A stretch of DNA of 64,000 bases. Source: Candidatus Omnitrophota bacterium (GTDB taxonomy: Bacteria; Omnitrophota; Gorgyraeia; B26-G9). The DNA is taken from assembly GCA_018817165.1 (NCBI GenBank), contig JAHITY010000072.1, forward strand, positions 49,164 to 113,163, written 5' to 3'. Position numbers and translations under genes: made by a program. The notes below the pieces were generated by a model. That model was not told where the DNA came from. It saw only the letters and a program-made list of their open reading frames with translations, and did not search any database. This document shows, in pieces, positions 3,332 to 62,122 of this stretch (positions are counted from its first letter, which is position 1; each line of letters begins with the position of its first letter).

Positions 3332-4440
3332 AAAAAACAAAAAGCAGAATTAAACAATTAATTCATTTTCTGAATTTAGGCTGGATGGTCGGATTAATTC
3401 GCAAAGCTAAATATGCTTTACTGGATGTGTTCGGGAATATTTTTTTCACGGCGGCAAGATTGTTAAAATTTTTACCCTTTGCAAAGACTTGGGATGAGAA
3501 TGCTGCTAAAAATATTTTAATCGTGCGTAATGATAGAGTCGGGGATCTGGTGCTTTCCACTCCGGCTTTGCGCGCGGTCAGGGAAAAATATTTTGACGCG
3601 AAAATCCACTTATTGGTCAATAATTATGCCAAAGATTTAGTAATTAATAATTTGAATATTGATAAAATTCTCACAGAGGAAAAGGAAGTTTTAAATACAA
3701 AGTATGATTTGGCGATTGCTTTGCATGCTGGGTTTAAGCAGAATCAGATACTTTTTCAAAGCAGAGCAGATTGTCGGATAGGGTTTATTGGCGCGGGAGG
3801 TGGGTTTTTTTTAACGGAAAAGATTAAAGATGATCGCAGCGCAAATCCGATGCATGAGATTGATTTTACTTTGCTGGCTGCGCAAAAGGCCGGAGCAGAT
3901 ATCGCGAATAAAAAGCTGGAAGTTTCGATAACAAATCAGGGAGAAAAATTTGCTGATAAATTTTATTTTGATAATAAACTTACTGGGTTGACAATAGTTA
4001 TCCACCCCGGGGCAAGACAAGAGATCCTCCGCTGGTCAAAACATAGCTTTGCCCAACTGGGTGATTTACTGATTAAGCAGTTTAAAGCGAAAGTTGTTTT
4101 AACCGGCACAGCTAAAGAAAAAGAACTGATCGCTGATATTATTGCTGAAATGAAGAGTAAACCAGCAGTTTGTTTGGATGTTAAATTAACGGAATTGGTT
4201 TCAGTTATGAAAAGAGGATCAATGTATGTGGGCAACATAACCGGGCCAATGCATATTGCCTGCGCGCTGAATATCCCGGTAGTGGCGATTACGGGTTTAT
4301 TTGGTTCGTTGGATGATATTAGATATTGGGGACCGCGCTGTGATAAATTCGAGATTGTGCGCAAGCAAGGCATTGATGCAATAACGGTAGATGATGTTTA
4401 TCAAGCAGTGCTAAGATTAGCAGGTGAAAATGCGGCGTGA
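3328..4440 (+). CDS. Glycosyltransferase family 9 (ADP-heptose:LPS heptosyltransferase-like, RfaF/WaaC family)
   Basis: 370 aa. 'ILIVRNDRVGDLVLSTPALRAVREKYFDAKIHLLV' is the canonical GT9 N-terminus. 'GNITGPMHIACALNIPVVAITG' is the C-terminal GT9 motif. Confidence 0.8.
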   Translation: MKKTKSRIKQLIHFLNLGWMVGLIRKAKYALLDVFGNIFFTAARLLKFLPFAKTWDENAAKNILIVRNDRVGDLVLSTPALRAVREKYFDAKIHLLVNNYAKDLVINNLNIDKILTEEKEVLNTKYDLAIALHAGFKQNQILFQSRADCRIGFIGAGGGFFLTEKIKDDRSANPMHEIDFTLLAAQKAGADIANKKLEVSITNQGEKFADKFYFDNKLTGLTIVIHPGARQEILRWSKHSFAQLGDLLIKQFKAKVVLTGTAKEKELIADIIAEMKSKPAVCLDVKLTELVSVMKRGSMYVGNITGPMHIACALNIPVVAITGLFGSLDDIRYWGPRCDKFEIVRKQGIDAITVDDVYQAVLRLAGENAA

Positions 4441-6207: not shown

Positions 6208-6859
6208 ATTTTATTGCTGGATTCATCGAAAATTATCAAGACCAGATGAACAAGGAGAGTATTCTGCTGGTGTCTGGCAAAATGCGGTAAGAGATGAAGT
6301 AATCGCTTTATCTGCTGACGCGTCAGGAAAAGTCCTGGAAGTCGGTTGCGGAGAGGGTTTGCTGCTATTAAAGCTTGCTAGGTTGGAAGCAAAACTTGAT
6401 ATCTATGGTATAGATATTTGGAATGATATATTGGTAAGGGCGCAGAGCAAACTTGATAAAAATAATATTCATAATGTGAAACTTAGCCAGGCGGACGCGA
6501 CGAAACTTCCGTTTAGTGATAATTTTTTTGATCGGGTTATCTGTATTAATGTTTTTTTTAATTTACCCCAAGAAGAGATGGTTTTACAAACGATAAAAGA
6601 GATTTCAAGGGTTGTAAGAAAAAATGGTAAAATAATCGTGGATATCCGTAATAGTTTGAATCCCTTGCTTTATTTGAAATATAAATTTGCTAAATATTAT
6701 GATTCCACAGTCAAAGATTTACCATTGCGAACCTATAGCTATAAGAAAATAGTAAATTATTTGGAAGAGAATAATTTTAAAGTGATTAAAAAAATAGAAA
6801 TTGGTTTTCCTAAGAATAGTTTAGCGCCAATTTTTGTGATTAAAGCCCAAAGGATATGA
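6197..6859 (+). CDS. Class I SAM-dependent methyltransferase (second copy)
   Basis: 220 aa. 'VLEVGCGEGLLLLKLA' motif I and 'VRKNGKIIVD'. Follows the second GT9, mirroring the GT9-MTase pair upstream. Confidence 0.75.
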   Translation: MLNKFYCWIHRKLSRPDEQGEYSAGVWQNAVRDEVIALSADASGKVLEVGCGEGLLLLKLARLEAKLDIYGIDIWNDILVRAQSKLDKNNIHNVKLSQADATKLPFSDNFFDRVICINVFFNLPQEEMVLQTIKEISRVVRKNGKIIVDIRNSLNPLLYLKYKFAKYYDSTVKDLPLRTYSYKKIVNYLEENNFKVIKKIEIGFPKNSLAPIFVIKAQRI

Positions 6860-8139: not shown

Positions 8140-8280
8140 TGCTCATCCATGGCGGTCTAGAATCAATTATTTATGCTCATTCTCGCTTTACATCCTGTAA
8201 AGCTCCGAGGATAGATCTCTGATTTTGCCAGTCCTATCAAAATCAGGCTCTAAACCCGCCAAAATAATTATTCTAGCCCT
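8140..8280 (+). repeat. Dispersed structured repeat family 1, copy 1 (~135 bp; TIR-bounded, MITE-like or ncRNA)
   Basis: Near-identical to 48590..48729. Ends 'ggtCTAGAATcAATTATTt ... aAATAATTATTCTAGcc' form a ~15-bp inverted repeat. Internal hairpins gctttaca-tcc-tgtaaagc and ctgattttg-N10-caaaatcag. Confidence 0.6.
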
Positions 8281-8363
8281 CTGCAGTTATTAATTACGAA
8301 TTGTTAGTTTTTACTTTTTACTATTAGCCATCGACAATTAGCAATTAGCCTTATGCTTTTCCC

Positions 8364-8398
8364 TTGTGACCTTGTGTCTTGGTGACTTTGTGACCTTG
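8364..8398. repeat. Degenerate heptamer microsatellite (CTTGTGW)x5
   Basis: 'cttgtga ccttgtgt cttggtga ctttgtga ccttg' directly abutting the stop of the minus-strand ABC permease gene. Same motif family as 38829, 44632, 48817 and 62067. Confidence 0.6.
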
Positions 8399-9207: not shown

Positions 9208-9991
9208 TTTTCATCACCGTCTTATAAATATCAGTTAAAGAGGCATCAGCGTTCTTAAGGTTTTGGTGTAAAGTATCGATACTGCCTAAGGCAGCAATTT
9301 TTCCACTTTTGAGAAACATGAATGTATCACAAAGATTTTCTGCTTCTGGAATATTATGACTGGTTAAGATAATGGTTGTCTTGTTTGCGCTAAGATCCTT
9401 AATGAATTTATAGAGACTCATTGATGTGTCAAAATCAAGGCTTTTGGTTAATTCGTCGACTAAAAGTATTTTAGGCCGATGAATAATTGCTCTTAAAAGA
9501 GAAAGCTTTCTTTTCATTCCAGAGGAATATGTGTCAAAGCGTTTGTGAATATAATTTATATCAAATATTGATAAAAGCTCATTAATGCGAAGTTTTGTTT
9601 GCTTGGGCGTTAATCCGTACATAGCGGCAAAAAACTCTAGGTTTTGTATGCCGCTTAAACGCCAATAAAAACTGCGTTCTTCATTGTCGACAAATCCAAA
9701 AAGAGATTTTATCTTATCGGCTGGGGTATTAGCAAGATAGTGGTCGATAACTATAGAGCCTTTATCTGGAATGATTAAAGTACAAAGGCATTTTAGTAGT
9801 GTGGTTTTTCCGGCCCCATTTGGTCCGAGTATTCCCAGTATTTTGCCCGAATCTAATTGGAAATTTATGTCTTCCAATGCGCTAACAGGATTCTTGTTTG
9901 CGAGTCTAAACTTGAGGATATCCTGCAAGGTTAGCACGGGGGAAAATGATTTACTCATATGGGAGACGTGTATAATATTAGCTTGATTCAT
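9200..9991 (-). CDS. ABC transporter ATP-binding protein (Wzt/TagH-like, no C-terminal extension)
   Basis: 263 aa. Walker A 'GPNGAGKTTLLKCL', signature 'YSSGMKRKLSL', Walker B 'ILLVDELTKSLD'. Confidence 0.85.
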   Translation of the reverse strand: MNQANIIHVSHMSKSFSPVLTLQDILKFRLANKNPVSALEDINFQLDSGKILGILGPNGAGKTTLLKCLCTLIIPDKGSIVIDHYLANTPADKIKSLFGFVDNEERSFYWRLSGIQNLEFFAAMYGLTPKQTKLRINELLSIFDINYIHKRFDTYSSGMKRKLSLLRAIIHRPKILLVDELTKSLDFDTSMSLYKFIKDLSANKTTIILTSHNIPEAENLCDTFMFLKSGKIAALGSIDTLHQNLKNADASLTDIYKTVMKNA

Positions 9992-18664: not shown

Positions 18665-18760
18665 TTCCCCTTTCTTAAAACATAAAAAATACTTAAAAAT
18701 CTCCATAAGTAACAAAACAAGCAATGCTTGAAATGTAATAAATTGTAGTTTAAAATAATA
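18665..18760. repeat. Left copy of a ~90-bp direct repeat flanking the RAYT-like gene; contains the palindrome AAGCAaTGCTT (18719..18729)
   Basis: 'cccctttcttaaaacataaaaaatac...ccataagtaacaaaacaagcaatgcttgaaatgtaataaatt' is matched by 19770..19865. Confidence 0.6.
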
Positions 18761-19631: not shown

Positions 19632-19769
19632 TCAAGTAATCCTGTTTACTGCTAAAAATAATCAAATATAACATAAAGAGCATTGCTTATAATGTTATAT
19701 TTGGCTTGGATAGAGAAATATGGATAAAAAATTAAGGTTTTACCAGATAAATCTTCGCAAGTCTCCCTT

Positions 19770-19865
19770 TTTTAAAACACACAAAATATTATTTAATTTG
19801 GAAGCATTAAAGAGCACTAAAGTATCTATAAGTAACATTATAAGCAATGCTTGAAATGTATATTT
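19770..19865. repeat. Right copy of the ~90-bp direct repeat; palindrome AAGCAaTGCTT at 19842..19852; an inverted partial copy 'gagcattgctta' at 19688..19699
   Basis: 'tctcccttttttaaaacacacaaaatatt...ctataagtaacattataagcaatgcttgaaatgtatatttta' matches 18665..18760. Confidence 0.6.
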
Positions 19866-20050: not shown

Positions 20051-20082
20051 ACTGAATATCTTTATTTTTAAAATTAAGGTGC

Positions 20083-20271
20083 AGTATGTTAAAAAATACG
20101 AAAAGGGAATAGTCTGTTAAGAAAAATGAAAAAATAGTATGCTAAGAAATATGAAAAAGGAATAGTATGCTAAGAAAAATGAAAAAAGAGCAGGATGTTA
20201 AGAAAAATGAAAAAATAGTATGTTAAAAAATACGAAAAGGGAGTAGTATGCTAAGAAATACGAAAAAGGTT
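20083..20271 (+). repeat. Six or seven tandem ~27-bp copies of the giant gene's own RBS/start-codon region (AGTATGYTAARAAAWAYGAAAARGGRAT), creating serial mini-uORFs
   Basis: Units begin at 20083, 20111 (CTG instead of ATG), 20136, 20164 (extended), 20217 and 20245 (the real start at 20248). uORFs: MLKNTKRE*, MLRNMKKE*, MLRKMKKEQDVKKNEKIVC*, MLKNTKRE*. Each ATG is preceded by 'aagggaat/aaaggaat' (SD-like). Confidence 0.8.
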
Positions 20272-23200
20272 AATAATATAGATTTTCCTAATAATCTGTT
20301 AAAATTTTGCTTAACTTTTTTGTTTTTTATTGGACCTTTAATTATCTTTACATCTTTTGCGCAAGCTGATGTGCCTGTGTTTATGGCTTATTCGCAAGCA
20401 AGTGCTACCAGTGGAGGCACTATTAATGTTACTAAGCCTTCTGGGACTGTACAGGGTGATTTACTTATTGCCAGTTATGTATCTGATGACATATATACCT
20501 TAACCGCGCCCTCAGGTTGGACGCTTATTCAAGGCGGATATTCAAATCCGGTTGATAATACGCCAAGTTTTGGTGTCTGGTATAAGATCGCCGATGCTTC
20601 AGAACCGACCAGCTATACATTTTCTTCAGGGGGAAACGATGACCAATATGTAGCGATTCTCAGATATCAAGGCCATGATCCGGCAGCGCCGATAAATAAT
20701 TCGGCAATTGCTTATTCCACTGGCAGCAATGCTCCTACAGCACCTTCAATAAATACTACGAGGGAAGAGTGTGTTATTTTACGGGTGTTTGGGGCTGATG
20801 ATGATGATACTCCGTATAATGTTCCGGCTGGATATTCGGAGCGCTATAATGGGAAAAGTACTGCCAGTAATAGTTCCTGCGGAGGTGCAGGCGCTGATAC
20901 TACACAGGCTTTGCCCGGGGCAACTGGGACCGCTGCTTTTTCGATGAATGCTATTGAAGAGTGGATGGCTGTAACTATTGCAATAGCTCCGCCGCCAAAG
21001 CCAAATGTAAATATCACAGTCACCCCTAACCAGACAAAGGCTCAGAACAGCGGCGGTTTGGAGTTTAAACTTGTTTTTGATCAGGTGATGAATACTTCAA
21101 TAGCGCCGGTGGTAAGTTATGACCCGGCAGGAGTACTCGGAGCCCAGTCGTGTACTGGAGGAACATGGTCAACTACGACACTGACAAATGATACATACAA
21201 AGTTTACAATGACAATCCGATAACTGATTCTACTGGTGATGGCACAGCCACGATAAGCGTGAGTGCAGCTAAAAGCGCAGCAGGGGCAATAATGAACCCT
21301 GATACGAATGACACTTTTCTTATTGATGCGACTGTTCCTATTAATCCTACACAGCCTTGCAGCGCATGGAATTCTAGCAGTAAAATAAATTCGATAGCCA
21401 ATGATACTTGGCAGGAAGCAGATAATACGCCTTATTTTGAATGGTCAGGCGCAACAGATACTGGCGGCACAGGAGTCAACGGTTATTCGGTTTATTGGGG
21501 AAATGACGCGTACGGTGAACCAGCATTAATCCAAGAACAGTCGGCCAGCAATTATAATGTTTCCTCAGGAACGGCAGATGGGGTTTATTATCTAAGAGTT
21601 AGAACTTTTGATATTATTGGTAATTACAGTCAGTCGGTAACTTTGTTTACTTTTCGCTATGATGCCGGTGTTCCTTTAAATCCGGATATTCCCTGTGCTG
21701 CTTGGCAATCAAATCTAAAAGTAAATCCCATCAGTAATAATACATGGCAGCAAGCTGATGATACGCCTTATTTTGAATGGACCGGTGCTAATGACAGCGG
21801 AGGTTCAGGAATAAGCGGCTATTCAGTTTATTGGGGTACTGATATTAATGGAGCACCAGGAGTAAGTCAAGAACAGGGCAATGCTGATTATGAGATCAGT
21901 ACTCCGACGGGTGATGGGACCTATTATTTAAGGATAAGAACTTTTGATAATCTTAATCATTATAGCGCGCCAATTACTTTATTTACATTTCGATATGACG
22001 CAACTGCTCCTTTGAATCCCACAGTTCCGTGTAATGCCTGGGATTCTTCATCTAAGAATACAGTGATTTCTGATAATACTGCTCAAGGGATTGATTCAAG
22101 TCCTTATTTTGAATGGTCTGGAGCAGATGACGGCAGCGGTCAAGGCGTCAGCGGATATTCAGTTTACTGGGGTATTGACCCAGAGGGCGAGCCGGCAACA
22201 GCACAGGAACAATCAGCGGCAAATTATAATATTGTTTCCGCGGTAAGTGAAGGTACTTATTATTTACGCATAAGGACATTTGATGCTTTGGGACATTACA
22301 GTGATGCTGTAACATTATTTACGTTTATTCTTGATCAAACAAAACCCACGGTCAGCGTGGGTGTTTTGCCTGATCCCTCTGGGCACAGAGCTCCCGGGGA
22401 ATTAGGGTTTACTTTACTTTTTTCTGAATCCATGGATATGGGTACAGATCCAATTGTAAGTTATGATCCTAGCGGAGCAACCGGAGTACAGAACGCAAGT
22501 CTTAATGGGGCTTGGTCAACAACAAATAATCCTAATGATACTTATACTGTTTACAATAGCAATGCGATAAACAGTGCTACCGGAGAAGGCACAGCAACAA
22601 TCTCGATCAGCATGGCAAAAGATATTGCCGGCAATACAATGCTGGCTGACACTAATGATGTTTTCTCGATCAATACAGCGATAGACCATTTTGTAATTGA
22701 GCATGATGGATCAGGATTAATTAATATTCCGGAAACTATAACTATTACCGCGAAAAATATCACTAACTGTACGGTAAATGATTTTACCGGTCAGATAACA
22801 TTAAGTACTTTAAATGAAACAAAACAGATCACCTGGGCTTTGGTCAGCGGCAATGGAACTTTTGTTGATAATGGATTAGGCAATGATTCAGCAACCTATA
22901 CTTTTAATGCCGCTGACAATGGGGTGGTTGTATTGCAGCTTACTTGCAGTGCGGCAAACAACTTGGATATTGAGGCAACGGATGGAACGCATAGTGATGA
23001 TGATACTGAAGGAACCTTGGTTATTTCGACAACGGCTTTAGGCTGGTTTGTGATTGAGCATGATAATGCGGCAGTTGCCGGAGTAAAAGAAGATATAAAA
23101 GTCACAGCCAAAGATACAAATGGCCTGACGAAAACAGATTATGTGGGAACAGTTATTTTAGATACCACGGGAACACCAACAACAATTTCCTGGACGATCA

Positions 23201-26200
23201 GTACTGGACTGGGAACTTTTAGCGAAGGCGGAGCAAGTGTTGATACAGCGCAATACACATTTAATCCCAATGATAATGGTGTGGCTATATTTACTATAAA
23301 GGATACTAAAGCGGAAACTTTGAATATATCGGTTGATGACGCAGGGAAAACTGATAATAATCTTGAGGGTAATCTAGTTATTGCCCCAGGGGCATTGAAT
23401 CATTTTATTGTCAGCCATGATGCTCAAGCCATAGCCGGCATAGCGGACAGTGTGACAATCAGAGCTTATGATATTTATAATAATATTAAAACTGATTATG
23501 TCGGGACAATGACAGTAGATACAAATGGAACAGACAGCGCGATCAGTTGGGCAAAGATCAGCGGTAATGGAATATTTACTGACGGCGGTCCCTCGGCTGA
23601 TACCGCGACCTATGGTTTTGTATCAGCTGACGCGGGGGTAGTTGTTTTAAGTATTACTGATACAAAAAAAGAAACAATTGATATTGATGCCAGTGCTGAG
23701 GGGAAAACAGATACTGATTCTGAGGGGACAATGGTGATCAGTGCCGCGGCAATTGATTATTTTCTGATCAGTCATGATACGGCGGGATCCGCGGGAGTTG
23801 CTGAACAGGTGACTGTTTTGGCAAAAGACAGTTATGGAAATACCAAGACTGATTATACCGGGACAATTACTTTGGATACTAATGGTACGGCAGCAGCAAT
23901 CAGCTGGGCCAAGGCAGTGGGCAATGGAATATTTACGGATAATGGGCCGAGTGTTGATACAGCAACCTATGTTTTTGATTTAACTGACAATGGTATTGCC
24001 GTATTTTCAATAATTGATAGTACCGCTGAATCGATTAATATTTCTGTAAGCGGAGACGCTAAGACAGATAATAATACTGAAGGTAATTTAGTCATCGGGC
24101 CAGCGGTTATCTGGTCATTTCGGGTAACACATGACGGCGCGGGTAATGCTGGGTTAGCGGAAACAGTTACAATTACCGCATTGAACAGTATTGGCCAGAT
24201 AAAAACGGATTATACCGGAACGATTACAATTGATACCAACGGAACAGCTACAGCAATCAGTTGGACTAAATTGATCGGCAATGGGACATTTAATGATGGC
24301 GGTGTGGCTGTTGATACAGCGGTTTATACTTTTTCTGCTTTGGATAATGGTGTGGTAACGCTGGCGATAACGGATAATGCGGTAGAGAGTATTGATATTG
24401 ATGTCAGCGGAAGCGGGAAGACTGATGATGACAGCGAAGGCTTGATGAATATTGATACTGCTTTGCTTGCTTATTTTAGGATAGCGCATGATGGGATTGC
24501 TGTTGCGGGAATAAATGAAAATATTACAATTACCGCCAAAGATACCTTAGGGCAAACTAAGACAGATTATACGGGAACAATATATATAGATACTGACGGC
24601 ACGGCGAATACAATTACCTGGACAAAGATCAGCGGAGCAGGCGGATTTGTCGATGACGGAGCAGCCGCGGATACTTGTGCTTATACATTCAGCGCAGCGG
24701 ATAATGGTGTTGTTGTGCTGGGGATGTCTGATACTTTTACTGAAACAATCAATATCTCAGTATCCGGCAGCGCGTCTGATGATAATACTGAAGGATTATT
24801 ACAGGTTCGTCCCGGAACATTGAGTAAATTTATTATTTCGCATGATAATAATGCGTTTACCGGAATTCCCGAGCATATTACTATAGCAGCTTATGATGGA
24901 TTTAATAATATTAAAACAGATTATACTGGTTCAATCATCGTTGATACCAATGGCACGGCAACAACTATTTCTTGGGCAAAATATCAAGGCGCAGGAACTT
25001 TTGTTGATGGCGGTGCAAGTGTTGATACAGCAACTTATACATACAATTCAGCAGACACGGGAATTGTAACATTGGATATGACTGATATGACTGCTGAGAC
25101 AATAAATATTTCGGTAAGCGGAGGCGGCAGTGTTGATGATAATACTGAAGGCAATCTGGTTATTACTCAGTTTTTACTGGGCAATTGGACTTATAATAAG
25201 GAAGTGACGATTGATCGGACAAAAGTAATGGCTGCTCTGACTGATTTCCCTGTGCTGATAAGTATTGTGGATACAGCTTTGCGGGACAATGCCCGCAGCG
25301 ATGGTTTTGACATTGTGTTTACAGCAAGTGATAAGAATACTAAGTTGGATCATGAAATAGAAAGCTTTGATAAGGCAACCGGGACTTTAGTCGCCTGGGT
25401 AAAAATTCCCAGTCTTTTGGCATCAGCAGACACAAAAATTTATATGTATTACGGAAATCCGGCTGCCAGTGATCAGCAGAATAAAAGCGGAGTATGGGAT
25501 TCATCATACAAAGGAGTATGGCATTTAAATAATGATCCTTCAATAACAGCGCCGCAGGTAAAAGATTCAACTTCTAATAATAATGCGATGACTTCTTACG
25601 GCACAATGACCAATACTGATTTAGTTTACGCGAAAGTCGGCAAAGGAATTGATTTTGACGGCAGTAATGATTACTTTAAAAAAACCAGTCCGGTTGGAGT
25701 GGGAACACCGGGTGATTATACTGTTTCGGCATGGTTTAAATACACTTCTTCTCCGGCAAATTACGGAACGATTTATAATCATAATAATTATTCTCCTCAA
25801 TTTGGTTTTTATAATCAAAGCGTAGCCATGGTTTATCACAGTTCCTTAATTACTTCCAGCGGAACAGCCACGCATAATGATAATCAATGGCATAAGGTTG
25901 ACTATCGCAGAGTAGGGTCAACTGTTTACTTTTATGTTGATGGTGTTTTGCATGGAACCGGCAGTCATACCCGGACATTTCCTACAGCAACATCAGCCTT
26001 GATTGGCTGGTCAAATTACAGCAATGAGTATTGGCTAGGGCAGCTGGATGAAGTGCGCTACTCAACCACAGCGCGTTCTCCGGAATGGATCGCCACAGAA
26101 TATAATAATCAAAATTCACCAGCTACTTTTATAAATGTTGGTTTAGCGGCAACCGCAACAGCAAATCCAGTGATAACGGATACTGTTCCTGTCGGGCAGA

Positions 26201-29200
26201 CAGGTAATTTAATCCTTAATGTTTCGGTTACTAACAATGAAGGAAGCGTTTTAACGATAAACAGCATTACCCTGAATAATGTCGGGACAGCCAGTGATGC
26301 TGAGATAACAGCAGTAAAACTTTACTATGATTCGAATAATTCTTTGGATTATACTCCGGGAGTGGATACACAGGTTGGCAATAGCGGTTTTTCTTCAGGC
26401 ACTAAGATGTTTTCCGGATTTAATATAAATATTTCGGCGGGAGCAACCCAATATTTATTCGCGGTTGTTGATGTGGCTTCGGCTTGCGCTAGTGGTAAAA
26501 TATTGGATGTCTCTATTCCGATCAATGGGATCACTTTTTCTAATGGTAAGAAACTGGCTAGCGCGGTTTTAAATTCCAATGGGACAAGACAGACATATAT
26601 AGGTTTGAATCATTTTGTGATTAATCATGATGGCGCGGCGATTGCCGGCTTAGATGAACATATTACGATTACAGCTAAAGATGCTTATGGTAATACTAAA
26701 ACAGACTATACCGGGACAATAACTGTTGATACTGATGGTACCGCGGAATCAATCTCCTGGTCAAAATACGCAGGTAACGGAGTGTTTACTGACGGAGGTT
26801 CAAGCCTTGATACGGCGACATATACTTTCGCGCTATCAGATGGAGGAGTTGTAGTTTTAAATATCAGCAATCAGATCGCTCAGACAATCAATATCTCGGT
26901 AAACGGTGACGCTAAGAGTGATGATAATACAGAACCTGATCTTAGTTTTTCCGCGGGGTTGGTGGATAAATTTATTCTAAATCATGATCAGGCGGCGATT
27001 GCCGGGCAAGGAGAAACAATTACGATTATTGTGAAAGATAGTTTTGGCAATACAGTGACTAATTATTCCGGACAGATAACTTTGGGAACAGATGGTTCGG
27101 CTGCGGATATTAGCTGGACACTTAATTCCGGTTCAGGCATATTTTTGAATAATGGAGCTGGTGCCGGCACGGCAATGTATACTTTTGATCCGAGTGATTC
27201 CGGAACAGCGAGCTTTGAAATAATGGATAATAAAGCAGAGACAATAAATATTATCGCGGTTGGGGATGGAAAATATGATGATAATAGTGAAGGAGCGCTT
27301 GTTGTGGCGCCTGGAGAATTACACCATTTTGTGATCAGTCATGATCAATCTGCTAATGCCGGCAGCGCGGAAGTGATTTCCATAACAGCTTTAGACAGTT
27401 TAAATAATATAAAAACTAATTATACCGGAACAGTTACTTTGGATACAACAGGGACAGCGACAAAAATTACTTGGGCGCTTAATGCGGGTAATGGAATTTT
27501 TATTGACGGCGGAGGATCATTAGATACGGCGACATATACGTTTAATGCTTTGGATAATGGGATAGCGGTATTTAATTTAACTGATACAAAAGCAGAAATA
27601 ATTAATATTTCAGTTGTTGCCGGCAGTATTACTGATAATGATACTGAGGGCAATATGATTGTTGGACCCGGAGAAATAGATTATTTTCTGATCAGTCATG
27701 ATAGAATAGCGACAACTGATGTTTCAGAGCAAATAATGATCACAGCTTATGATGCTTTTGCGAATATTAAAAATGATTATACCGGGACAATAGGATTAGA
27801 TACCACGGGAACGGTTACGACAATCACCTGGACATTGATCAGCGGTGAAGGGATATTTAATGACTCAGGCCCTTCAGATGATACTGCCAGCTATACTTTT
27901 ACCGCGGATGATTCAGGAGTGGTTATTGTAAGCATTATTAATTATACAGCGGAATCAGTAAATATATCGGTTACAGGAGATGGTAAAACAGATAATAATC
28001 TTGAAGGAAATCTAGTATTTGTTTCTTCCGGGATCGATCATTTTTTAATTGTTCATGATAATAACGCGATTGCCGGTATCGCGGAAAGTATTTCAATTTA
28101 TGCTAAAAACGCTAATGGCGATACCTTGACCAGTTACGGCGGGCAAATTACGATTGATACAACCGGAACCCCCGGAACAATCAGCTGGGCATTACAATCA
28201 GGTACCGGGGATTTTACTGATTCCGGTGCTGCTGATGATACTTGTTCTTATATATATGATGATGCTGATTTGGGTGTAGTTGTTTTGACTATGATTGATT
28301 CTACGGAAGAAACAATAAATATTTCAGTTTTCGGTGAAGCTAAAACAGATAATAATACAGAAGGAAATTTAGTGATTAATCCCGCAGGGCTGCATCATTT
28401 TTCAATCACCCATGATAATAACGCAATTGCTGGAATCGGGGAAACAGTAACTATTCAGGCAAAGGACGCGAATAATAATACTTTAAATACTTATGCCGGA
28501 CAAATTAATCTGGATACAACTGGGACAGCAACAACAGTTACTTGGGCAAAAATTTCCGGTAATGGCAGTTTTAGTGATGGGGGAGCTTTGGTTGATACAG
28601 CAACATATTCGTATGTTGCCGGAGACAGCGGGACTTGTGTTTTGAGTATTACAGATACTAAAGTAGAATCCTTAAACATATCAGTAGCTGGCGGGGGGAA
28701 AACTGACGATGATAAAGAAGGCTTATTAACAATTGGGGCAGGAGCGATTGATCATTTTACAATCAGTCATGATGGAATCGCGGTTGCCGGGGTCGCGGAT
28801 AATGTAACGATAACGGCTTATGATGCTTATGGTAATATTAAGACTAATTATACAGGTCAAATTACTTTGGATACTAATGGTACCGCGACAACAATAACCT
28901 GGGCCAAAGCTGCGGGACTGGGAACTTTTATTGAAGGCGGAGCAGCAGTGGATACAGCGACATATACATTTTTAGCTGCGGATAATGGGCAATGCATACT
29001 TAAAATAACTGATACAAAATCAGAAAGTCTGAATATTTCTGTTATCGGAGATGGAAAAAGTGACAATGATTCAGAAGGTAATTTAATTGTCAGTCCAACC
29101 AGTTTACAGTATTTTATGGTCAGTCATGATACTAATGCTGAGGCGGGAGTAGCGGAAAATATAACAATCACAGCCTATGATCTATATTCAAATATCAAAG

Positions 29201-32200
29201 ATAATTATACCGGGACAATAACTTTGGATACAAATGGAACGGCAACAACAATCAGCTGGTCGAAAGTAACTGGTAATGGTGTGTTTACTGATGGCGGGGC
29301 AGCTGTAGATACCGCTACTTATACTTATACTGACAGTGATAAAGGCATTGTGGTATTAAGTATTAATGACACTAAAAAAGAGAATATTGATATTGATGTT
29401 TTTGGCGGAGGAAAAACCGATACGGATACTGAGGGTATTTTAGTTATAGCTCCGACCAGTATTAATCACTTTGTAATTACGCATGATGGCAATGCTGAGG
29501 CTGGGATAGCGGAAAATATAACAGTTAAAGCATATGATATTTACTCAAATTTAAAAGATAATTATATGGGTACGATCGGCTTAAATACTAATGGAACAGA
29601 GACAACTATAACCTGGGCAAAGATAACTGGTAATGGCGTATTTGTCGATGGCGGCGCGGCTGTGGATACAGCAAGTTATACTTACGCAGATAGTGATGAT
29701 GGTATTGCGGTTTTTTCGATTACAGATACAAAAAAAGAGGTAATCAATATTACTATATCCGGGGATGGTAAAAGCGATACTAATACCGAAGGTGATTTAA
29801 CAGTAGGCGCTTCGGCGATTAATTATTTTACGATTTTTCATGACGGATCAGGGGTGGTTGGTTTGGGCGAATCAATCGCGATTTACGCTAAAGATACTTG
29901 GGGAAATATTAAAGATAATTATATCGGACAGATCACTGTGGATACTAATGGAACAGCAACAGCGATTGCCTGGACATTATCTGCCGGAGTCGGCGTATTT
30001 GTCGACGGAGGAGCGGCAGCTGATACCGCGACATATACTTTCAGTGATGCTGATGACGGTTTGGTTGTTCTGTCTTTAAATAACAGTGTCGCGGAAACAA
30101 TAAATATTTCAGTCAGCGGTGACGGCAAGACAGATGATAATACAGAAGGCAATTTAATTATAAATCCAGTGGGCGGATTAAATACCGGTTATTTATCGCC
30201 AACAGCAAATAGCGGTAATTTTACCAGCCCGGCAAATGCTTATGCTAATGATACCTCGCGGGCAACTTCATCTAATGGGCAATCACAGCAGTATTCTAAT
30301 TACGGGATCAATATTCCTGCGGGATCAACGATTTTAGGGATTGAAGTACAGATGGACGCGTATGCTTCAACTACTACTGGTTTGATCCAAGGACTGGTTG
30401 AATTATCCTGGAATGGTGGAACAAATTTTACTTCCACTGGAAAAATTACTCCGGATATGATTACCTCTGAAGTAACTTATATTTTGGGCGGGCCAACTGA
30501 TATTTGGGGCAGGACATGGACAGTCGCGGATTTAACCAATGCTAATTTTCGTTTAAGAATTAATGCCAGCACCCCTGGGACAACAAGTTATTTATATCTG
30601 GATTGGATCCCGGTCAGGGTTTATTATGATCTGCCGCCAGACGCGATTGCTAATCCTGTCAGCACAAATTCAGTGTCCGCCGGGGCAAGTAATATTTTAA
30701 GCCTTGACATTACGGTTACCAACTCTGCCAGCCAGAATAGAATTATAAATTCTCTGACAATTAATAATACCGGAACTTTATCAGATACAGAGATTGCTTC
30801 ATTAAAATTATATTATGACAGTAATAATTCCGGGGATTATACAGTAAATGTTGATAATCAAGTCGGCTCAGGGGTATTTAATTCCGCCTCAAAAACTTTT
30901 ACTGGCTTAATTATAACTGTTCCGCCCAGCGGTTCGGCAGATCTTTTTGTAGTTTGTCAGATCGCGCAAACTGTAAATGACGCGGATACTTTGGATATAC
31001 AGATCCCGAGCAATGGAATAAGTTTTGCTAATGGAGTTCAAATAGAAGATACAGCATTAAATTCAGCAGGGATAATCCCGGTTTCCTTAGTATTAAATCA
31101 TTTTGTGATTGTGCATGATCAAGCGGCGGTCACTGGTATTCCGGAACAGGTAAGAATCACGGCGCATGATGTTTATGGAAATATTAAGACAGCCTACACC
31201 GGGACAATAACTTTGGATACAAACGGAACCGCAACAGCGATAACTTGGGCAAAAGTCACAGGTAATGGGGTGTTTACAGACGGCGGAGCAGCTGTTGATA
31301 CAGCGACATATATATTTAACGCAACGGATAATGGTACTGCTTTGTTTAGCATTGTTGATAATAAAGCTGAGACAATTAATATTTCAGTCAGCGGAAACGC
31401 TAAAATTGATGATAATACTGAAGGCAATCTTGTGATTTCTTCGGGAGCAATCGACCATTTTCAGATTAGTCATGATAGCGCGGCTGTTGCCGGAGTCCCG
31501 GAAAACATAATCATAACAGCAAAAGACGTGTTTAATAATACGGTTGCTAATTATACCGGACAAATAATTCTAGACACAAATGGCACTGCCGCGGGAATAA
31601 GCTGGGAATTGTTTTCCGGTTTTGGAGTTTTTGCTGATGGCGGTCAAGGAGTTGATACGGCAACTTATACTTTTAATTCCTCGGATAATTCAACTGTTAC
31701 TTTTACGCTTACCGCAACAGTAGCGGAAACTCTTAATATCGCGGTAACCGGGGATGGGAAAGCTGATGATAATACTGAGGCAAATCTGATTGTTTCGGCT
31801 GCGGGTTTGAATCATTTTTTAATTAATCATGACGGAGCAGCGCAAGCGGGAGTAGCGGAGACAATAACAATCACGGCAAAAGATCAGTATGGGAATACGA
31901 AAAAGAATTATACTGAACAGATCAGTTTGGATACCAATGGAACAGCCTCGACAATAGTTTGGGCAAAAATCAGCGGTAATGGTACATTTGTTGACGGCGG
32001 TTTATCTGTTGATACTGCTACCTATACCTATAATTTGGCGGATAATGGCGTAGTTATATTATCACTGAAAGATACAAATCTTGAATCTTTAAATATTTCA
32101 GTTTCCGGATCAGGCAAAACAGATAATGATAGTGAAGGGCTACTTAATGTCGGCCCAGGGATAATTAATCATTTTTCAATTATCCATGATGGTTTTGGAT

Positions 32201-35200
32201 TGCAGAATCAAGCAGAGGAAATCATTATTAAAGCGTATGACGCGTATAATAATATTAAAACTGATTATACAGGATCAATAATTGTAGACACAAATGGGAC
32301 AGCAAATGCTATTACCTGGGCATTGAATGCCGGCAGCGGAGTTTTTAATGATAACGGGGCGAGTGTAGATACAGCGACTTATACATTTAATCTTAGTGAC
32401 AATGGACAGGTTATATTATCGTTGACTGATACTGTTTCTGAAATAATTAATATTTCAATATCCGGTGATACGAAAACAGATGATGATAATGAAGGTGTTC
32501 TGGAAATTGTTGCCGCGGGATTTCATCATTTTAAAATCACGCATGATGGAAACGCGATTGCTGGTATTGCTGAACAGATCATGGTCACGGCTAAGGATGC
32601 TAGTGATGTGACGATTACTAATTATGCCGGAACTATTACTTTGGATACAAATGGCACTGCTACGGAAATAAGCTGGGCATTGCAGTCAGGAACCGGAGCA
32701 TTTAATGACAATGGGCTAACGGTTGATACAGCAACATATACTTTTAATCTGAGTGACAATGGAACTGCGGTTTTTACAATTACGAATACACAGATTCAGA
32801 CAATTAATATAAGTGTTAGCGGCAGTGGGAAAACTGATGATAATACGGAAGGCAATTTAGTTTTTAATCCTCCGGGATTAAAGCATTTTAGGATTACACA
32901 TGATGGTTCAGCAATTGCCGGAGTCGTTGAAAATATTATAATTACCGCGCGTGACGCAAACAGTAATCCAGTTGTGAATTATACCGGGTCTATTACTCTT
33001 GATACAAACGGCACTAGCGGAACAATTGCCTGGTCAAAAATTTCCGGTAATGGCACATTTACTGACGGCGGAGCAGCAGTTGATACAGCGACTTATTCAT
33101 TTGCCGCCGCGGATAATGGCACAGTTACTCTGGGTATAGTCAACACTAAGGCTGAGTTGTTTAATGTTTCGGTCATTGGTGACGCCAAGACTGATGATAA
33201 TTTAGAAGGGGATATTACAGTTATCGCGAATGCACTGAATAAATTTATTATTGTTCATGATGCCAGCGCGCAGGCTGGTATTGCGGAGAATATAATAATT
33301 ACCGCTAAAGACGCTTATGCAAATACAATCATTAATTATACCGGGACAATAAATTTAGATACAAATGGAAACGCAACAACAATCAGCTGGGCCAAGGTAA
33401 CAGGCAGTGGAGTGCTGAATGATGGGGGCGCCTTGGTTGATACAGCTGATTATACTTTTGGGTTGGCGGATAATGGAGTGGTTGTTTTAAGCATTACAGA
33501 TACGACAGTAGAAAACCTGAATATCTCAGTGGCTAGTGATGGTAAATCCGATGATGATACGGAAGGGATTTTGATTGTCGGGGCAGGGGCTTTAGATAAA
33601 TTTATTGTCAGTCATGATGGTTCAGGATACGCGGGTATCGGAGAATTGATCACAGTAAAAGCCTATGATATATACGCAAACATAAAGACAAATTATAGCG
33701 GAACGATCACTGTGGATACTAATGGAACAATGAACGCGATCAGCTGGTCATTAAATTCCGGATTGGGTGTCTTCACTGATGGCGGGGCCGCGGTTGATAC
33801 GGCGACATATACTTTTGTGGCTGGAGATAATGGCTTGGTTGTGCTGATGCTTATTGATACAGCCGCTGAATCTATAGATATTGATATTTCCGGCTCAGGA
33901 AAATTTGATGATGATAGCGAAGGAAATATGTTGGTTTCTCCCAGCGGATTACATCATTTTTTGATTGAGCATGATGCGAGTGCCATGGCCGGTATCGCGG
34001 AAAGTATCAATATTTATGCCAAAGATTATTATAATAATACGCAAAATGATTATACCGGAACGATTACCTTGGATACTACGGGGACAGCGACAACAATTAC
34101 CTGGTCAAATATTTCCGGCAATGGAATGTTTAATGATAATGGAGCAAGTCTGGATACAGCTGCTTATACTTTTATTTTAGCAGATAATGGCTTGGTTAGT
34201 TTTTCGCTTAATGATACTACCGCGGAAATCCTGAATATTTCGGTCAGCGGTGACGGTAAATTTGATGATGATACTGAAGGTGGTTTAACAGTAAGCCCCA
34301 ATGTTTTGAATTATTTTTCAATAAGTCATGATGGGTCGGCAGTGCAATCAATCGGTGAAGAAATAATGGTTACAGCTAAAGATCAATATGGCAATATAAA
34401 AACCGACTATATCGGAACAATTATTCTAGATACGGATGGGGATGTGAATAATATCAGTTGGGAGTTGAAAAACGGGGCAGGGTTTTTTACTGACGGCGGT
34501 TCTGGGGTTGATACAGCGATGTATACTTTTGCTTTACAGGATAATGGAGAAGCTTTTTTTAATATAACTGACAATACAGCGCAAACCATAGACATTGATG
34601 TGAATGATGGTTCGATTATTGATGATGACACAGAGGGCGCTCTTGTTGTACAGGCTTCATCATTAAGTGTGGATATTACGGCTAATACTTTGAGCAGCGG
34701 GTATATAAGTCAAACAGTGACTGATAAATTAATTTTGGATCTTACGCTTACAAATAACAATGTTCTGGCCGCTGACACGATTCAGAGCCTGACGATTAAT
34801 AATAGCGGAACAATCCCTGATAGCCAGATCAGCGCAATAAAACTTTTTTATGACAGCAATAACTCCGGTGAATTTGAACCAGGTATTGATGCGCAGATCG
34901 GGACTAAAGTTTTTAGCGGCGGAGCAGCTGTATTTAATGATATTGATGTATTGATTCCAATTGCCGGAACAGAAGAATTATACGCAACAGTAGATTTAAG
35001 CGGAACGGTTACTAATGGGGCAAGCGTGGATATAAGTGTTCCGATTAATGGAATTAGTTTTGAATTTTCGCCAACAGCTGAAGATAGTATTTTAAATTCG
35101 ACAGGAAGCTATATTGTTGATTCCGTGGGTCCGGGTAATGTTTCCGGCTTGGCAACAAACTCCCATAATAATGCGATCAGCACTTGGAGCGATCCGCAAT

Positions 35201-38828: not shown

Positions 38829-38877
38829 ATTGTGTCCTTGTGACTTGTGAACTTGTTATTTAAATAAGGGAGTTTGT

Positions 38878-44123: not shown

Positions 44124-44737
44124 TTTGTCCCCCTAGTGCCAGATCTTATTTGCTGGATTGTATTTGCTCTTAAAGTTGGTGGTGATAAATCTTCTTCCAT
44201 AATAACAGGTTCTTGTTCAATATTGATTTCTGTTTTTTCAGTGGTAGGTTCTGAATTTTTTTGCTGAGCAGCTTGCTGGAGTTTTAATTCAAAGTCTTTT
44301 CCATCTTTTTGAATGATTATCTTATTTAGCATGATCGATTTAACGGTATAATCTTCAATAGCTTCATTAACCGAAACATAAAATCCCTTTTTTGTGCTTT
44401 TTTGCTCGACGATTGCTTTATAACCGTTTTTAATTTCAATAACTCCGGTGAGAATTAGATCTAAGCTGTCTTTTTCCTGTTTTATGTTTGTTTCAATTGG
44501 AATTGATCCAATTTCCGGTTGATCTTTTTTGGGGCGAAAAAAATTTCGCTGCTCAATAACTTTGTAATAATTGAAGGAGGCATCTTCATCAACCAGCAAG
44601 GCTGAATCAGTTGTCTGGGCATAACAGCAGCAAGATACAAGACACAAGACACAAGACACAAGAGTTGATAGTGTAAAATTTACAAAAAACGATTTCCGGT
44701 CTGCAGTTTGTGTGCTGTGAGTTATGGACTGATTCAT
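44120..44737 (-). CDS. pilP: PilP-like lipoprotein (inner-membrane pilus assembly lipoprotein); N-terminal lipobox encoded by a heptamer microsatellite
   Basis: 205 aa. Position between the pilO-like gene and pilQ. 'FTLSTLVSCVLCLVSCCCYAQ' contains an L-V-S-C lipobox, duplicated. 4-nt overlap with pilQ. Confidence 0.5.
   Translation of the reverse strand: MNQSITHSTQTADRKSFFVNFTLSTLVSCVLCLVSCCCYAQTTDSALLVDEDASFNYYKVIEQRNFFRPKKDQPEIGSIPIETNIKQEKDSLDLILTGVIEIKNGYKAIVEQKSTKKGFYVSVNEAIEDYTVKSIMLNKIIIQKDGKDFELKLQQAAQQKNSEPTTEKTEINIEQEPVIMEEDLSPPTLRANTIQQIRSGTRGTK
44632..44664. repeat. Heptamer microsatellite (ACAAGAC)x~5 inside the pilP signal-peptide coding region
   Basis: 'acaagat acaagac acaagac acaagac acaagag'. 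Reads CTTGTGT in mRNA sense and encodes 'LVSCVLCLVSC'. Confidence 0.7.
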
Positions 44738-48055: not shown

Positions 48056-48096
48056 AATTGTTAAATTTAGCGACTTTTGATATTAAACCCAATAAA

Positions 48097-48125
48097 ATAG
48101 TACCTTATTTTGATTATTTTGTCAA
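48097..48125 (-). promoter_or_regulatory. Candidate sigma-70 promoter for the minus-strand merR-parA-pilMNOPQ operon
   Basis: Minus-strand reading 'cTTGACAaaataatcaaaataaggTACTATttt': -35 TTGACA (48120..48125), 17-nt spacer, -10 TACTAT (48097..48102), ~40 nt upstream of the start codon at 48055. Confidence 0.35.
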
Positions 48126-48184
48126 GAACTTGTTGAGTTTTAAATTTATAAACTTGCACATGGTGTCCTGTAATAACGCGGCCA

Positions 48185-48370
48185 GGCAAAAACACATCTT
48201 TTCGCTAAGCCTGAGCCTGCATCGTGCAGGCCCAGCCGCGCATTCTCACTATTTTGACATCCTTGTCAAAATTACGTTCGAAAGCGCCGCTCAAAGAGAA
48301 TTTTTGCCCAGCGGAGCGACCGTCAGCTATCAACATTGCGAACTTGTGAAAGATGATGGGGAAATTTTTA
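48185..48370 (+). repeat. Dispersed structured repeat family 2, copy A (core 48185..48313 plus conserved tail)
   Basis: Core 'GGCAAAAAcac.tcttttcgctaagcctgaGCCTGCAtcgTGCAGGCccagccgcgc.ttctcactaTTTTGACAtccTTGTCAAAAttacgttcgaaagcgccgctcaaagagaaTTTTTGCCcagcg'. Terminal GGCAAAAA/TTTTTGCC inverted repeat and two internal perfect hairpins. Copies at 55475..55603 (+) and 60184..60312 (-). Confidence 0.65.
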
Positions 48371-48589
48371 AGCTTCTCACAAATTTAGGTAAATACGTTT
48401 TGTATTTTTGGGGACCCTTTAGGGCACGAGGACCTGTATGAGCCCTTGCAAAATAAAAGAAAGGCGTTTACGCCAACTTTAAAGGGCGAGTTCCGCAAGT
48501 GCCAAGAATACAAAGCGGATTTACCGTTATTGATGTTTACATCAATAAAATTTGTGTCAGCGTAAAATTTGCCTGTTATCTTGTTATCA

Positions 48590-48729
48590 ACTTATCCAAG
48601 GCGGTCTAGAATCAATTATTTATGCTCATTCTCGCATTACGTCCTGTAATGCTCCGAGGATGAATCTCTGATTTTGCCGGTCCTGACAAAATCAGGCTTC
48701 AAACCCGCTAAAATAATTATTCTAGCCCT
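48590..48729 (+). repeat. Dispersed structured repeat family 1, copy 2
   Basis: ~90% identical to 8140..8280. Hairpin 1 shows compensatory substitutions (gcTttacA / tgtaaAgc versus gcAttacG / tgtaaTgc). Confidence 0.6.
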
Positions 48730-48844
48730 TTAATAATAAGTTACTAATTACAAATTTTAAGTTTTTGCTTTTTACTATTAGTTATCGACAATCAGCCATT
48801 AGCCCTAAGCTTTTACCTTGTGACCTTTGTCCTTTTTAATCACA

Positions 48845-48873
48845 TTGACCGACAGAAGTTATTTTGTTATAAT
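48845..48873 (+). promoter_or_regulatory. Candidate strong sigma-70 promoter for pilB (extended -10)
   Basis: 'TTGACCgacagaagttattTTGtTATAAT': -35 TTGACC (48845..48850), 17-nt spacer, TG-n-TATAAT (48865..48873), ~50 nt upstream of the pilB ATG. RBS 'aaaggatg'. Confidence 0.45.
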
Positions 48874-54091: not shown

Positions 54092-54118
54092 ATTAGCGTG
54101 TAGCGTTTAGCGTTTAGG
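54092..54118 (+). repeat. Post-stop heptamer motif ATTAGCGTGTAGCGTTTAGCGTTTAGG
   Basis: 11 nt after the gspK-like stop. Same family as 38645, 55327 and 60097. Confidence 0.6.
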
Positions 54119-55326: not shown

Positions 55327-55357
55327 AGCGTATAGCGATTAGCGTTTAGCGGTTAGG
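55327..55357 (+). repeat. Post-stop heptamer motif AGCGTATAGCGATTAGCGTTTAGCGGTTAGG
   Basis: 6 nt after the rSAM stop. Confidence 0.6.
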
Positions 55358-55474
55358 GAAATCGAAGGACGAGGGATGATCGCTGCGCTAGGACGCAAAA
55401 GCAGTTATGAGTTACTAGTTAAAAGCAGAAAAGCAAAAAAGCGCTTGGCTTATGTGCAAAGAAATTGTGTGCAT

Positions 55475-55709
55475 GGCAAAAACACGTCTTTTCGCTAAGC
55501 CTGAGCCTGCATCGTGCAGTCTCAGCCGCGCGTTCTCACTATTTTGACTTCCATGTCAAAATTACGTTCGAAAGCGCCGCTCAAAGAGAATTTTTGCCCA
55601 GCGTATTGACTATGGACCATCAGCCATCGACTATTAGCTATAAGTATAGAGAACATAAAGCAGAAAAGCATGAAAAGCGAACTTTGCGAAAGATGATTGG
55701 GAAATTTTA
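55475..55709 (+). repeat. Dispersed structured repeat family 2, copy B (core 55475..55603 plus tail running up to the GT4 start)
   Basis: ~93% identical to copy A across the core. The tail 'gcgaactttgcgaaagatgattgggaaattttaaag' parallels copy A's 'gcgaacttgtgaaagatgatggggaaatttttaag'. Confidence 0.65.
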
Positions 55710-55716
55710 AAGGATA

Positions 55717-60096: not shown

Positions 60097-60127
60097 AGCG
60101 GATAGCGATTAGCGAATAGCGATTAGG
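60097..60127 (+). repeat. Post-stop heptamer motif AGCGGATAGCGATTAGCGAATAGCGATTAGG
   Basis: 9 nt after the ExeA-like stop. Confidence 0.6.
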
Positions 60128-60183: not shown

Positions 60184-60312
60184 CGCTGGGCAAAAATTCT
60201 CTTTGAGCGGCGCTTTCGAACGTGATTTTGACAAGGATGTCAAAATAGTGAGAACGCGCGGCTGGGCCTGCACGATGCAGGCTCAGGCTTAGTGAAAAGA
60301 CGTGTTTTTGCC
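60184..60312 (-). repeat. Dispersed structured repeat family 2, copy C (inverted orientation)
   Basis: Reverse complement matches the core of copies A and B, including both hairpins and the terminal GGCAAAAA/TTTTTGCC. Confidence 0.65.
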
Positions 60313-60353
60313 TCTTGCAAAAAATAACCGGATAGATGCGGGAGGGGTTGTAG

Positions 60354-62062: not shown

Positions 62063-62066
62063 AACG

Positions 62067-62122
62067 ACACAAGACACAAGACACAAGACACAAGACACAA
62101 GACACAAGACACAAGACACAAG
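62067..62122 (+). repeat. Perfect heptamer microsatellite (ACACAAG)x8
   Basis: 56 bp of exact tandem ACACAAG starting 5 nt after the wecA-like stop codon. Confidence 0.9.

Follow-up and report, generated by a model that had tools for sequence, protein, structure and literature searches.

A structured, mobile repeat of MITE/REPIN-like kind in the gene gaps of an Omnitrophota clade

INTRODUCTION

Omnitrophota are uncultured, often ultra-small bacteria. In a 64,000-nt stretch of Omnitrophota DNA (here called the window), two gene gaps carry similar copies of a short sequence with complementary ends, and the locus raises the question of what kind of element this is. A sequence-only reading of the window had described it as a TIR-bounded structured element and had argued that it is under selection as RNA, as opposed to being a decaying MITE. 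Bacterial MITEs are generally ~100-200 bp long, non-coding, TIR-bounded and intergenic, with stable predicted stem-loops and presence/absence differences between strains (PMC10969869). We found no literature report of small repeat elements in Omnitrophota. Our analysis identifies a new, somewhat unusual structured mobile repeat of a known general kind, MITE/REPIN-like, and nothing in it shows an RNA gene.

RESULTS AND DISCUSSION

Two copies of a 128-nt core

Copy A is flanked by a DegT-type aminotransferase gene and an ABC-2 exporter gene, and copy B by a MerR-ParA-PilMNO operon and a PilB-like ATPase gene. Both sites had been located correctly, but the core is better set at 8153-8280 (copy A) and 48602-48729 (copy B), two 128-nt plus-strand units that score 155.9 and 152.1 bits, respectively, under R1, a covariance model built from six copies of this family (family 1). 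The cores are 91% identical over the aligned 128 nt, close to the ~90% first reported. The full extent of similarity between the window copies had been put at ~135 bp, but alignment gives ~230 bp (8146-8375 versus 48595-48827), which reaches ~100 nt rightward of the core and 8 to 11 nt leftward (ATCCAWGG). An exact 36-nt stretch common to the two copies was reproduced in 0 of 100 shuffles of the window. The 128-nt unit itself, CGGTCTAGAAT...ATTCTAGCCCT, is common to every family-1 copy found later.

The ends, described earlier as a ~15-bp inverted repeat, pair over 17 to 19 bp with one bulged C (GGTCTAGAAT(C)AATTATTT / AAATAATTATTCTAGCC). In copy A, this terminal stem, P1, is formed by arms at 8154-8176 and 8258-8279, which enclose hairpin P2 (8179-8212), hairpin P3 (8213-8251), and a junction (8252-8257); copy B has the same architecture. 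The two internal hairpins of the sequence-only reading are real, with a plus-strand fold of -37.3 kcal/mol (z = -4.7) and a minus-strand fold of -41.5 kcal/mol (z = -3.6). All six reading frames are closed in the family-1 core.

A second, homologous family and copies in relatives

R1 also found a seventh copy in locus L003 and gave weak, full-length, same-strand matches at three further window sites, which define family 2. The copy at 48183-48310 (plus strand; 155 bits, fold z = -5.8) has the terminal stem GGCAAAAA/TTTTTGCC and the hairpins GCCTGCA-TCG-TGCAGGC and ATTTTGACA..TGTCAAAAT; the copy at 55473-55601 (plus strand) lies between radical-SAM and glycosyltransferase genes; and the copy at 60187-60313 (minus strand) lies between AAA_16/22 and PIG-L genes, on the strand opposite to both. 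Family 2 has the length and three-way-junction fold of family 1, a similar P3 hairpin (ATTTTG...CAAAAT) and common junction residues (GCT, CCGC), with a different terminal stem, whose inverted repeat is 8 + 5 bp. Its own covariance model, R2, scores every family-1 copy at 23 to 34 bits, and R1 scores family 2 at 17 to 30 bits. Since each model detects the other family at full length and on the same strand, the two families are homologous. The description of a TIR-bounded, structured, multicopy element thus stands, but linking only two copies was too narrow, as the three family-2 copies of the window are related to them. With search filters off, the 64-kb window holds exactly five copies (two of family 1 and three of family 2) and no third family. 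Core lengths across both families are 126 to 128 bp, inside the ~50 to 500 bp range of MITEs.

A search for further copies and a covariance model had been proposed from the sequence; the models were built, and relatives do carry more copies. Scanning a single genome of each species with a 20-mer revealed two family-1 copies in JAZDHZ01 (L001 and L003), and a TIR-anchored pattern found two in metagenome Ga0180007 (L007 and L008). Syntenic loci added family-1 copies in L013, L019, L020 (partial), and L022, and family-2 copies in L011, L013, L015/L016 (partial), and L025. L017/L018 holds a 195-nt family-2 variant in which two other hairpins take the place of the P3 interior, while P1, P2, and the P3 base are retained. 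In all, ~315 kb of DNA from seven or more related genomes or metagenomes of Omnitrophota yielded 16 full copies, 10 of family 1 and 6 of family 2, together with this one arm-swapped variant; the results on structure and mobility concern these copies and the variant.

Relatives with 83 to 86% PilB identity include GCA_043805415.1 (JAZDHZ01), GCA_018817585.1 (JAHITE01), and Logan assemblies, and two genomes with 64% PilB identity have no copies in ~21 kb each. The pattern scan of the genome collection returned two real loci and one chance locus; of two metagenome pattern scans, the first returned nothing and the second returned two real loci and one chance locus. Pattern scans of viral contigs gave chance matches or none, and BLAST searches of plasmids (PLSDB) and phage records gave no match. 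Several contigs or assemblies break inside copies, and a family as dense as five copies in 64 kb breaks metagenome assemblies.

A coding role was considered and rejected. One frame is open through family 2, with plus-strand open frames at 48058-48441 (127 amino acids) and 55465-55710 (81 amino acids) of the window, but every difference seen by eye when the two plus-strand copies are compared changes the amino acid, so we take these frames as spurious genes. A protein-database search with the open frame found a single match, the 55-amino-acid JGI “hypothetical protein” P0001 in L011, so public data rarely contain this family.

The core is mobile

We compared four gene gaps across relatives. The MerR/PilB gap holds plus-strand copies of both families in the window, neither in L013 and L012, a plus-strand family-2 copy in L015, and a minus-strand family-2 copy in L025; in L013, the remainder of the gap aligns at 83 to 94% on both sides of each missing core, that of the family-2 copy at 48183-48310 included. 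The radical-SAM/glycosyltransferase gap has family 2 (plus) in the window, family 1 (minus) in L013, only 3 nt between the genes in L012, and only heptamers in L015. The AAA/PIG-L gap has family 2 on the minus strand in the window and on the plus strand in L013, whereas its L012 counterpart has heptamer arrays alone. In the DegT/ABC-2 gap, the site of copy A, the window has family 1 at 113 nt after the stop codon, L019/L020 have another sub-family at 40 nt, L017 has the family-2 variant at 18 nt, and L022 has family 1 at 185 nt; none of the five genomes seen has this gap empty, and all members lie in the DegT orientation. Because the same gaps are empty in relatives, or hold a member of the other family or a copy in the opposite orientation, the 128-bp core is mobile. 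The gap of L015 between the radical-SAM and glycosyltransferase genes, which lacks a core, contains at 6425-6440 a 10-mer, GGGCTAGAAT, that is identical to the family-1 terminus and adjoins the ribosome-binding site, perhaps as the footprint of an excision, perhaps by chance.

The elements mark hot spots of gene-gap turnover, including gaps beside type IV pilus and cell-envelope glycosylation genes.

The flanking heptamer arrays are resident DNA

Each copy had been reported to be followed by an ATCGACAATyAGCmATTAGCC motif and CTTGTGW runs, and both are indeed present. They belong to degenerate heptamer arrays on the plus strand at 8281-8398 after copy A (AGTTATT/AATTACG..., ATTAGCC/ATCGACA, CTTGTGA) and at 48730-48830 after copy B. 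The array after copy B (AGTTACTAATTAC...ATTAGTTATCGACAATCAGCCATTAGCC...CCTTGTGACC), of degenerate period 7, is orthologous to arrays at the empty L013 and L012 sites; arrays homologous to the one after copy A likewise stand without a core, at L013 9800-9904 and L012 9814-9905. The proposal of a composite modular element does not survive this comparison: the orthologous gaps of two relatives lack the core and keep the ATTAGCC/ATCGAC/CTTGTGA tail. Because it is retained where the core is absent, the tail is resident heptamer-array DNA and not cargo.

Gene gaps across the clade are mosaics of such arrays (TAGCGAT, AAAGCAG, AAACAGA, ATTAGCC/ATCGACC, CTTGTGA/GACACAA), on either strand and with or without a core. 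Array sites in the window include 8304-8398, 38837-38856, 44631-44663, 54093-54117, 55327-55356, 55421-55442, 60097-60126, and 62066-62122, and another lies at L012 20365-20611. At orthologous sites, the arrays expand, contract, and persist, and they resemble the STRR repeats of cyanobacteria. Cores very often adjoin them, an adjacency that may reflect target preference, with the arrays as the insertion target of the 128-nt elements.

This mosaic landscape also suggests that the cores might not move at all and might be ancient paralogous intergenic DNA of the BIME/BOX type, shuffled by recombination, slippage, and deletion among the heptamer arrays. The expansion and contraction of the arrays and the flanking sequence that window copies A and B have in common beyond the TIR would fit such a history. 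We give it very little credence, as a single gap can hold different families, offsets, and orientations in close relatives and be empty in others, and as the core boundaries are base-identical in all copies while the flanks are unrelated.

Pairing is kept by compensatory change

Among nine family-1 copies, 96.0% of pair cells are standard, and eight pairs are changed on both sides, compared with zero to three in slid controls; the covariation score is 0.166 versus 0.016 to 0.070. Among five family-2 copies, 95.9% of cells are paired, and seven pairs are double-changed versus zero or one in slid controls. In one sub-family, hairpin P2 has been rewritten almost entirely, from GCATTAC/GTAATGC to GTCCCGC/GCGGGAC. 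The terminal arms co-vary as well, with A7G/T122C in three copies, T16C/A114G in L022, and T18C/A110G in the family-2 copy of L025. Since stem pairing has been kept by compensatory changes, for which the added copies give far stronger evidence than the first two could, plain MITE decay does not account for the element.

The two substitutions singled out between copies A and B, a T:A-to-A:T swap (alignment columns 35:49) and an A:T-to-G:T change (40:44), are both present. The second had been taken as evidence of plus-strand RNA, in which it would survive as a G-U pair, but the plus-strand mismatch positions of 14 copies comprise 4 of the G.T type and 7 of the A.C type, which would read as G.T on the minus strand, and those of family 2 are A.C only. 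These counts are what strand-blind transitions give, and because the mismatches show no strand signal, the single G:T carries no weight. Selection on structure is thus borne out by the compensatory pairing in the stems, but its RNA-type strand signature is not. The opposition that had been drawn between a passive MITE and a functional RNA is likewise a false one, as the element is both mobile and structurally constrained.

Conservation is higher in the interior than at the ends. It is strongest in the 3' half and includes the P3 hairpin, its loop GTCCT, and the junction AAACCCGC; conserved unpaired residues of the junction and loops are common to the two families. Non-orthologous copies from different genomes are 90 to 96% identical where the PilB and DegT genes of those genomes have 70 to 80% DNA identity, the same sub-families recur in several genomes, and some copies are 96 to 98% identical to each other. 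Such identity means either that the element moves between lineages or that its whole sequence is constrained. As a post hoc observation, the P3 loops of the window (8230-8239, 48679-48688, 48260-48265, and 55550-55555) keep the pattern YCC(U/A)U, with GTCCT in 10 of 10 family-1 copies; on the plus strand it resembles an anti-Shine-Dalgarno sequence, and on the minus strand it is AGGA-like. The conserved loops may mark a contact with protein or RNA.

These patterns could also belong to a functional structured RNA module (an sRNA, or a cis-acting stabilizer, processing site, or insulator in mRNA) that spreads as DNA and is kept by selection on the RNA, with the three-way junction and the YCC(U/A)U loops as its functional parts; such a role would not exclude mobility. 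We consider this improbable but worth weighing. Compensatory changes in all three helices agree with it, as they do with a folded DNA strand, and so do the conserved unpaired residues, the excess of whole-element identity over gene identity, and the sub-families found in several genomes. The DegT/ABC-2 gap, occupied in five of five genomes and always in the same orientation, points the same way, and the family-2 variant swaps its P3 interior as RNA families vary their arms. What speaks against an RNA is, besides the missing plus-strand G-U bias and the A.C-only mismatches of family 2, the genomic setting. Sequence upstream is not conserved, and no promoter or terminator is shared across copies. 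Copy B sits between a terminator-like hairpin and the PilB-like gene's own promoter (TTGACC-17-TATAAT, 11/12, at 48845-48873); this promoter lies downstream of the copy and its tail, and the empty site has conserved it as well. The L007 copy sits between sequences that look by eye like a hairpin-plus-T-run terminator and a sigma-70-like promoter. Where the flanking genes are co-directional, copies point either way, and a search of the entire window against Rfam 15 returned nothing at gathering thresholds and, at E values up to 10, only chance-level matches around both copies.

Target sites and the classical MITE

At 15 copies, allowing 0 to 3 nt of boundary slack, we found no consistent direct repeat, and alignments of filled with empty sites (L013 and L012) show no duplication. 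The left flanks of the copies have only their last base, C, in common. The filled/empty junctions are not clean because the flanking heptamer arrays themselves vary, and given this blurring, a short, decayed duplication may be present. As a target-site duplication, a defining feature of MITEs, was looked for and not found, we keep the element apart from plain MITEs.

A classical MITE would be an internal-deletion derivative of an IS, moved by a DDE transposase acting on double-stranded TIRs, with incidental hairpins and decayed duplications. Size, AT-richness, TIRs, the lack of coding capacity, intergenic location, multiple copies, and insertion polymorphism all fit the textbook description, MITE duplications fade with time, and Correia elements are also able to invert (PMC10969869). 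We nevertheless regard this origin as unlikely. No duplication accompanies even the copies that are 96 to 98% identical, and the interior is better conserved than the TIR, whose two arms change together so that pairing is kept. The two families have unrelated TIRs and homologous interiors, the reverse of what is expected of IS-derived MITEs, and no full-length partner occurs in the approximately 250 to 315 kb searched. Even if it proved an ordinary MITE, the repeat would still serve to mark the lineage and to caution annotators, given spurious ORFs such as P0001.

A proposed folded substrate mobilized in trans

The explanation that we prefer, and to which we give an even chance, is a family of non-autonomous mobile repeats with a conserved fold, mobilized in trans either as a folded single strand or through paired ends. 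The elements are small (126 to 128 bp) and non-coding, would be confined to one Omnitrophota clade, and fall into two homologous families with sub-families. In each unit, two hairpins and a long terminal stem (the “TIR”) meet at a three-way junction, which the stem closes, and the units insert in either orientation into heptamer-rich gene gaps. The mobilizing enzyme, not encoded in the window, would act in trans, and the fold would be conserved since the machinery reads a folded single strand or needs both ends paired. Such logic would be that of REP/REPIN-RAYT systems, IS200/IS605 ends, and integron attC sites and not that of a DDE transposase reading two double-stranded TIRs; effects on neighboring transcripts would be secondary.

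Several observations count against this explanation. The ATCCAWGG shared on the left of copies A and B (8 to 11 nt) is not explained by a strict TIR-to-TIR unit. The conserved interior and the 90 to 96% identity are accounted for no less well by a cellular or RNA function that is sequence-specific. No mobilizing enzyme gene appears in the annotation syntenic to the window: precomputed Pfam annotation of the syntenic loci contains no RAYT, IS200-like, IS110-like, or DDE gene, and the ~20-kb pieces of the relevant MAGs contain no Y1_Tnp annotation. Neither solo ends nor a longer element with these ends occurs in the ~250 kb scanned. A more specific proposal, which we rate low, is a new class of structure-defined mobile module with co-varying ends that leaves no target duplication, homes to heptamer-rich gene gaps, and stays 90 to 96% identical across species whose genes differ by 20 to 30%; its conserved P3 hairpin and junction would be read by a so far unrecognized single-strand- or RNA-guided recombinase, or the cell would use it as a dispersed regulatory RNA with anti-Shine-Dalgarno-like loops.

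Three other candidate functions within the core were considered and rejected. A built-in promoter in family 2 would rest on a minus-strand TTGACA-16-GAGAAT in one copy, whose -10 element is by eye not conserved (GAGAAC, GAAAAC) and which has no consistent target; in family 1, transcription from the TAGAAT of the TIR would begin within P1. The IHF consensus WATCAANNNNTTR is matched by AATCAATTATTTA in the left arm, but in family 1 only and in one arm only, and we treat the match as chance. An intrinsic terminator is disfavored by the absence of a T-run after P1.

Comparison with known systems

Like the Correia elements of Neisseria (CREE/NEMIS) and the ERIC/IRU elements, the repeat is small, non-coding, TIR-bounded, intergenic, and multicopy, occurs in either orientation, and differs in presence between strains; the enterobacterial ERIC/IRU is ~127 bp long. 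Correia elements, however, have a TA duplication and promoter, IHF, and RNase III features, whereas this element has no duplication and no conserved promoter. It further departs from both in a three-way junction kept by compensatory change and in an interior more conserved than the TIR.

REP and REPIN sequences are extragenic hairpin repeats without target duplications; they often lie between convergent genes, are long-lived, and keep their pairing under drift. Our element resembles these sequences, which are mobilized by RAYTs (IS200/IS605-like Y1 transposases whose genes REPs usually flank), in being extragenic and hairpin-forming, in lacking a target duplication, and in maintaining its pairing. 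REPs, though, are palindromes of 20 to 40 nt with a GTAG-type head, and REPINs are inverted doublets of them, whereas this element is a three-armed, 128-nt unit with two different hairpins, has neither such a head nor an inverted doublet, and ends in GGTCTAGAAT / GGCAAAAAC. Known REP/REPIN and IS200/IS605 ends do not resemble it.

Integron attC sites and IS200/IS605 ends are recognized as folded single strands, with conserved structure and varying sequence. By analogy, the co-varying arms and the missing duplications suggest that the element may follow the same single-strand logic. It differs from attC sites, which have R''/R' core sites (GTTRRRY), cassette arrays, and an adjoining intI: here the ends have no R''/R' sites, no intI adjoins, and copies are single and dispersed among housekeeping genes. 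IS200/IS605 ends lack TIRs and insert beside a fixed tetra- or pentanucleotide, and the PATEs of that type, which have distinct subterminal hairpins, also lack TIRs and insert 3' of such a sequence; this element has TIRs and no fixed tetra- or pentanucleotide at the left flank. Pneumococcal BOX/RUP/SPRITE and Escherichia coli BIME sequences are likewise modular intergenic repeats beside other short repeats. Unlike in BOX and BIME mosaics, the heptamer arrays here are independent resident DNA, and the core is a single unit of fixed length.

Co-varying terminal arms, the lack of a target duplication, and an interior more conserved than both the ends and the host genes set the element apart from textbook MITEs. 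Its place is between MITEs and elements recognized by structure, such as REPINs and attC sites. It offers a tractable lead to an unrecognized mobilization system or a dispersed RNA element in a phylum without genetics.

Other features of the window

A conserved 240-nt non-coding segment lies at 48344-48583, with counterparts at L013 9565-9798 and L008 10756-10993 and no Rfam match. It starts with AACTTTGYGAAAGATGATKGGRAAATTTTWAAG, which is also present just before the gene start at 55717, and ends in a hairpin and T-run with a compensatory change in L008. In L012, the segment is split (3638-3715 and 9712-9814) by a 6-kb fur-dsbD-znuABC cassette. Because this cassette lies between the halves, the segment resembles a landing pad, or else the promoter/leader and terminator of an operon that the window lacks, and does not resemble an sRNA; we rejected a riboswitch or sRNA in favor of a left-over promoter and terminator of the fur-znu cassette present in L012.

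From ~21380 to 34550, the window contains a very long repetitive coding region with at least 24 diverged repeats of 357 nt (119 amino acids), preceded by 336-nt repeats. It presumably encodes one of the giant surface proteins that have been reported from Omnitrophota. Just upstream of this gene, tandem units of 25 to 28 nt (AGTATGCTAAGAAAAATGAAAAA, ~7 copies, also with an 81-nt period) occupy 20076-20290, an array that may be regulatory or phase variable. The window as a whole (1-64000; 34 to 44% GC) has a strongly positive GC skew throughout (0.09 to 0.24 in 4-kb bins), and most of its genes are on the plus strand. Finally, a 42-nt motif with a palindromic core (AAGCAATGCTT) occurs three times, at 18696-18737, 19655-19696, and 19819-19860. 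The syntenic position in relatives, downstream of a HisKA kinase gene, holds a sigma-54 activator, and the motifs may be candidate enhancer-binding sites.
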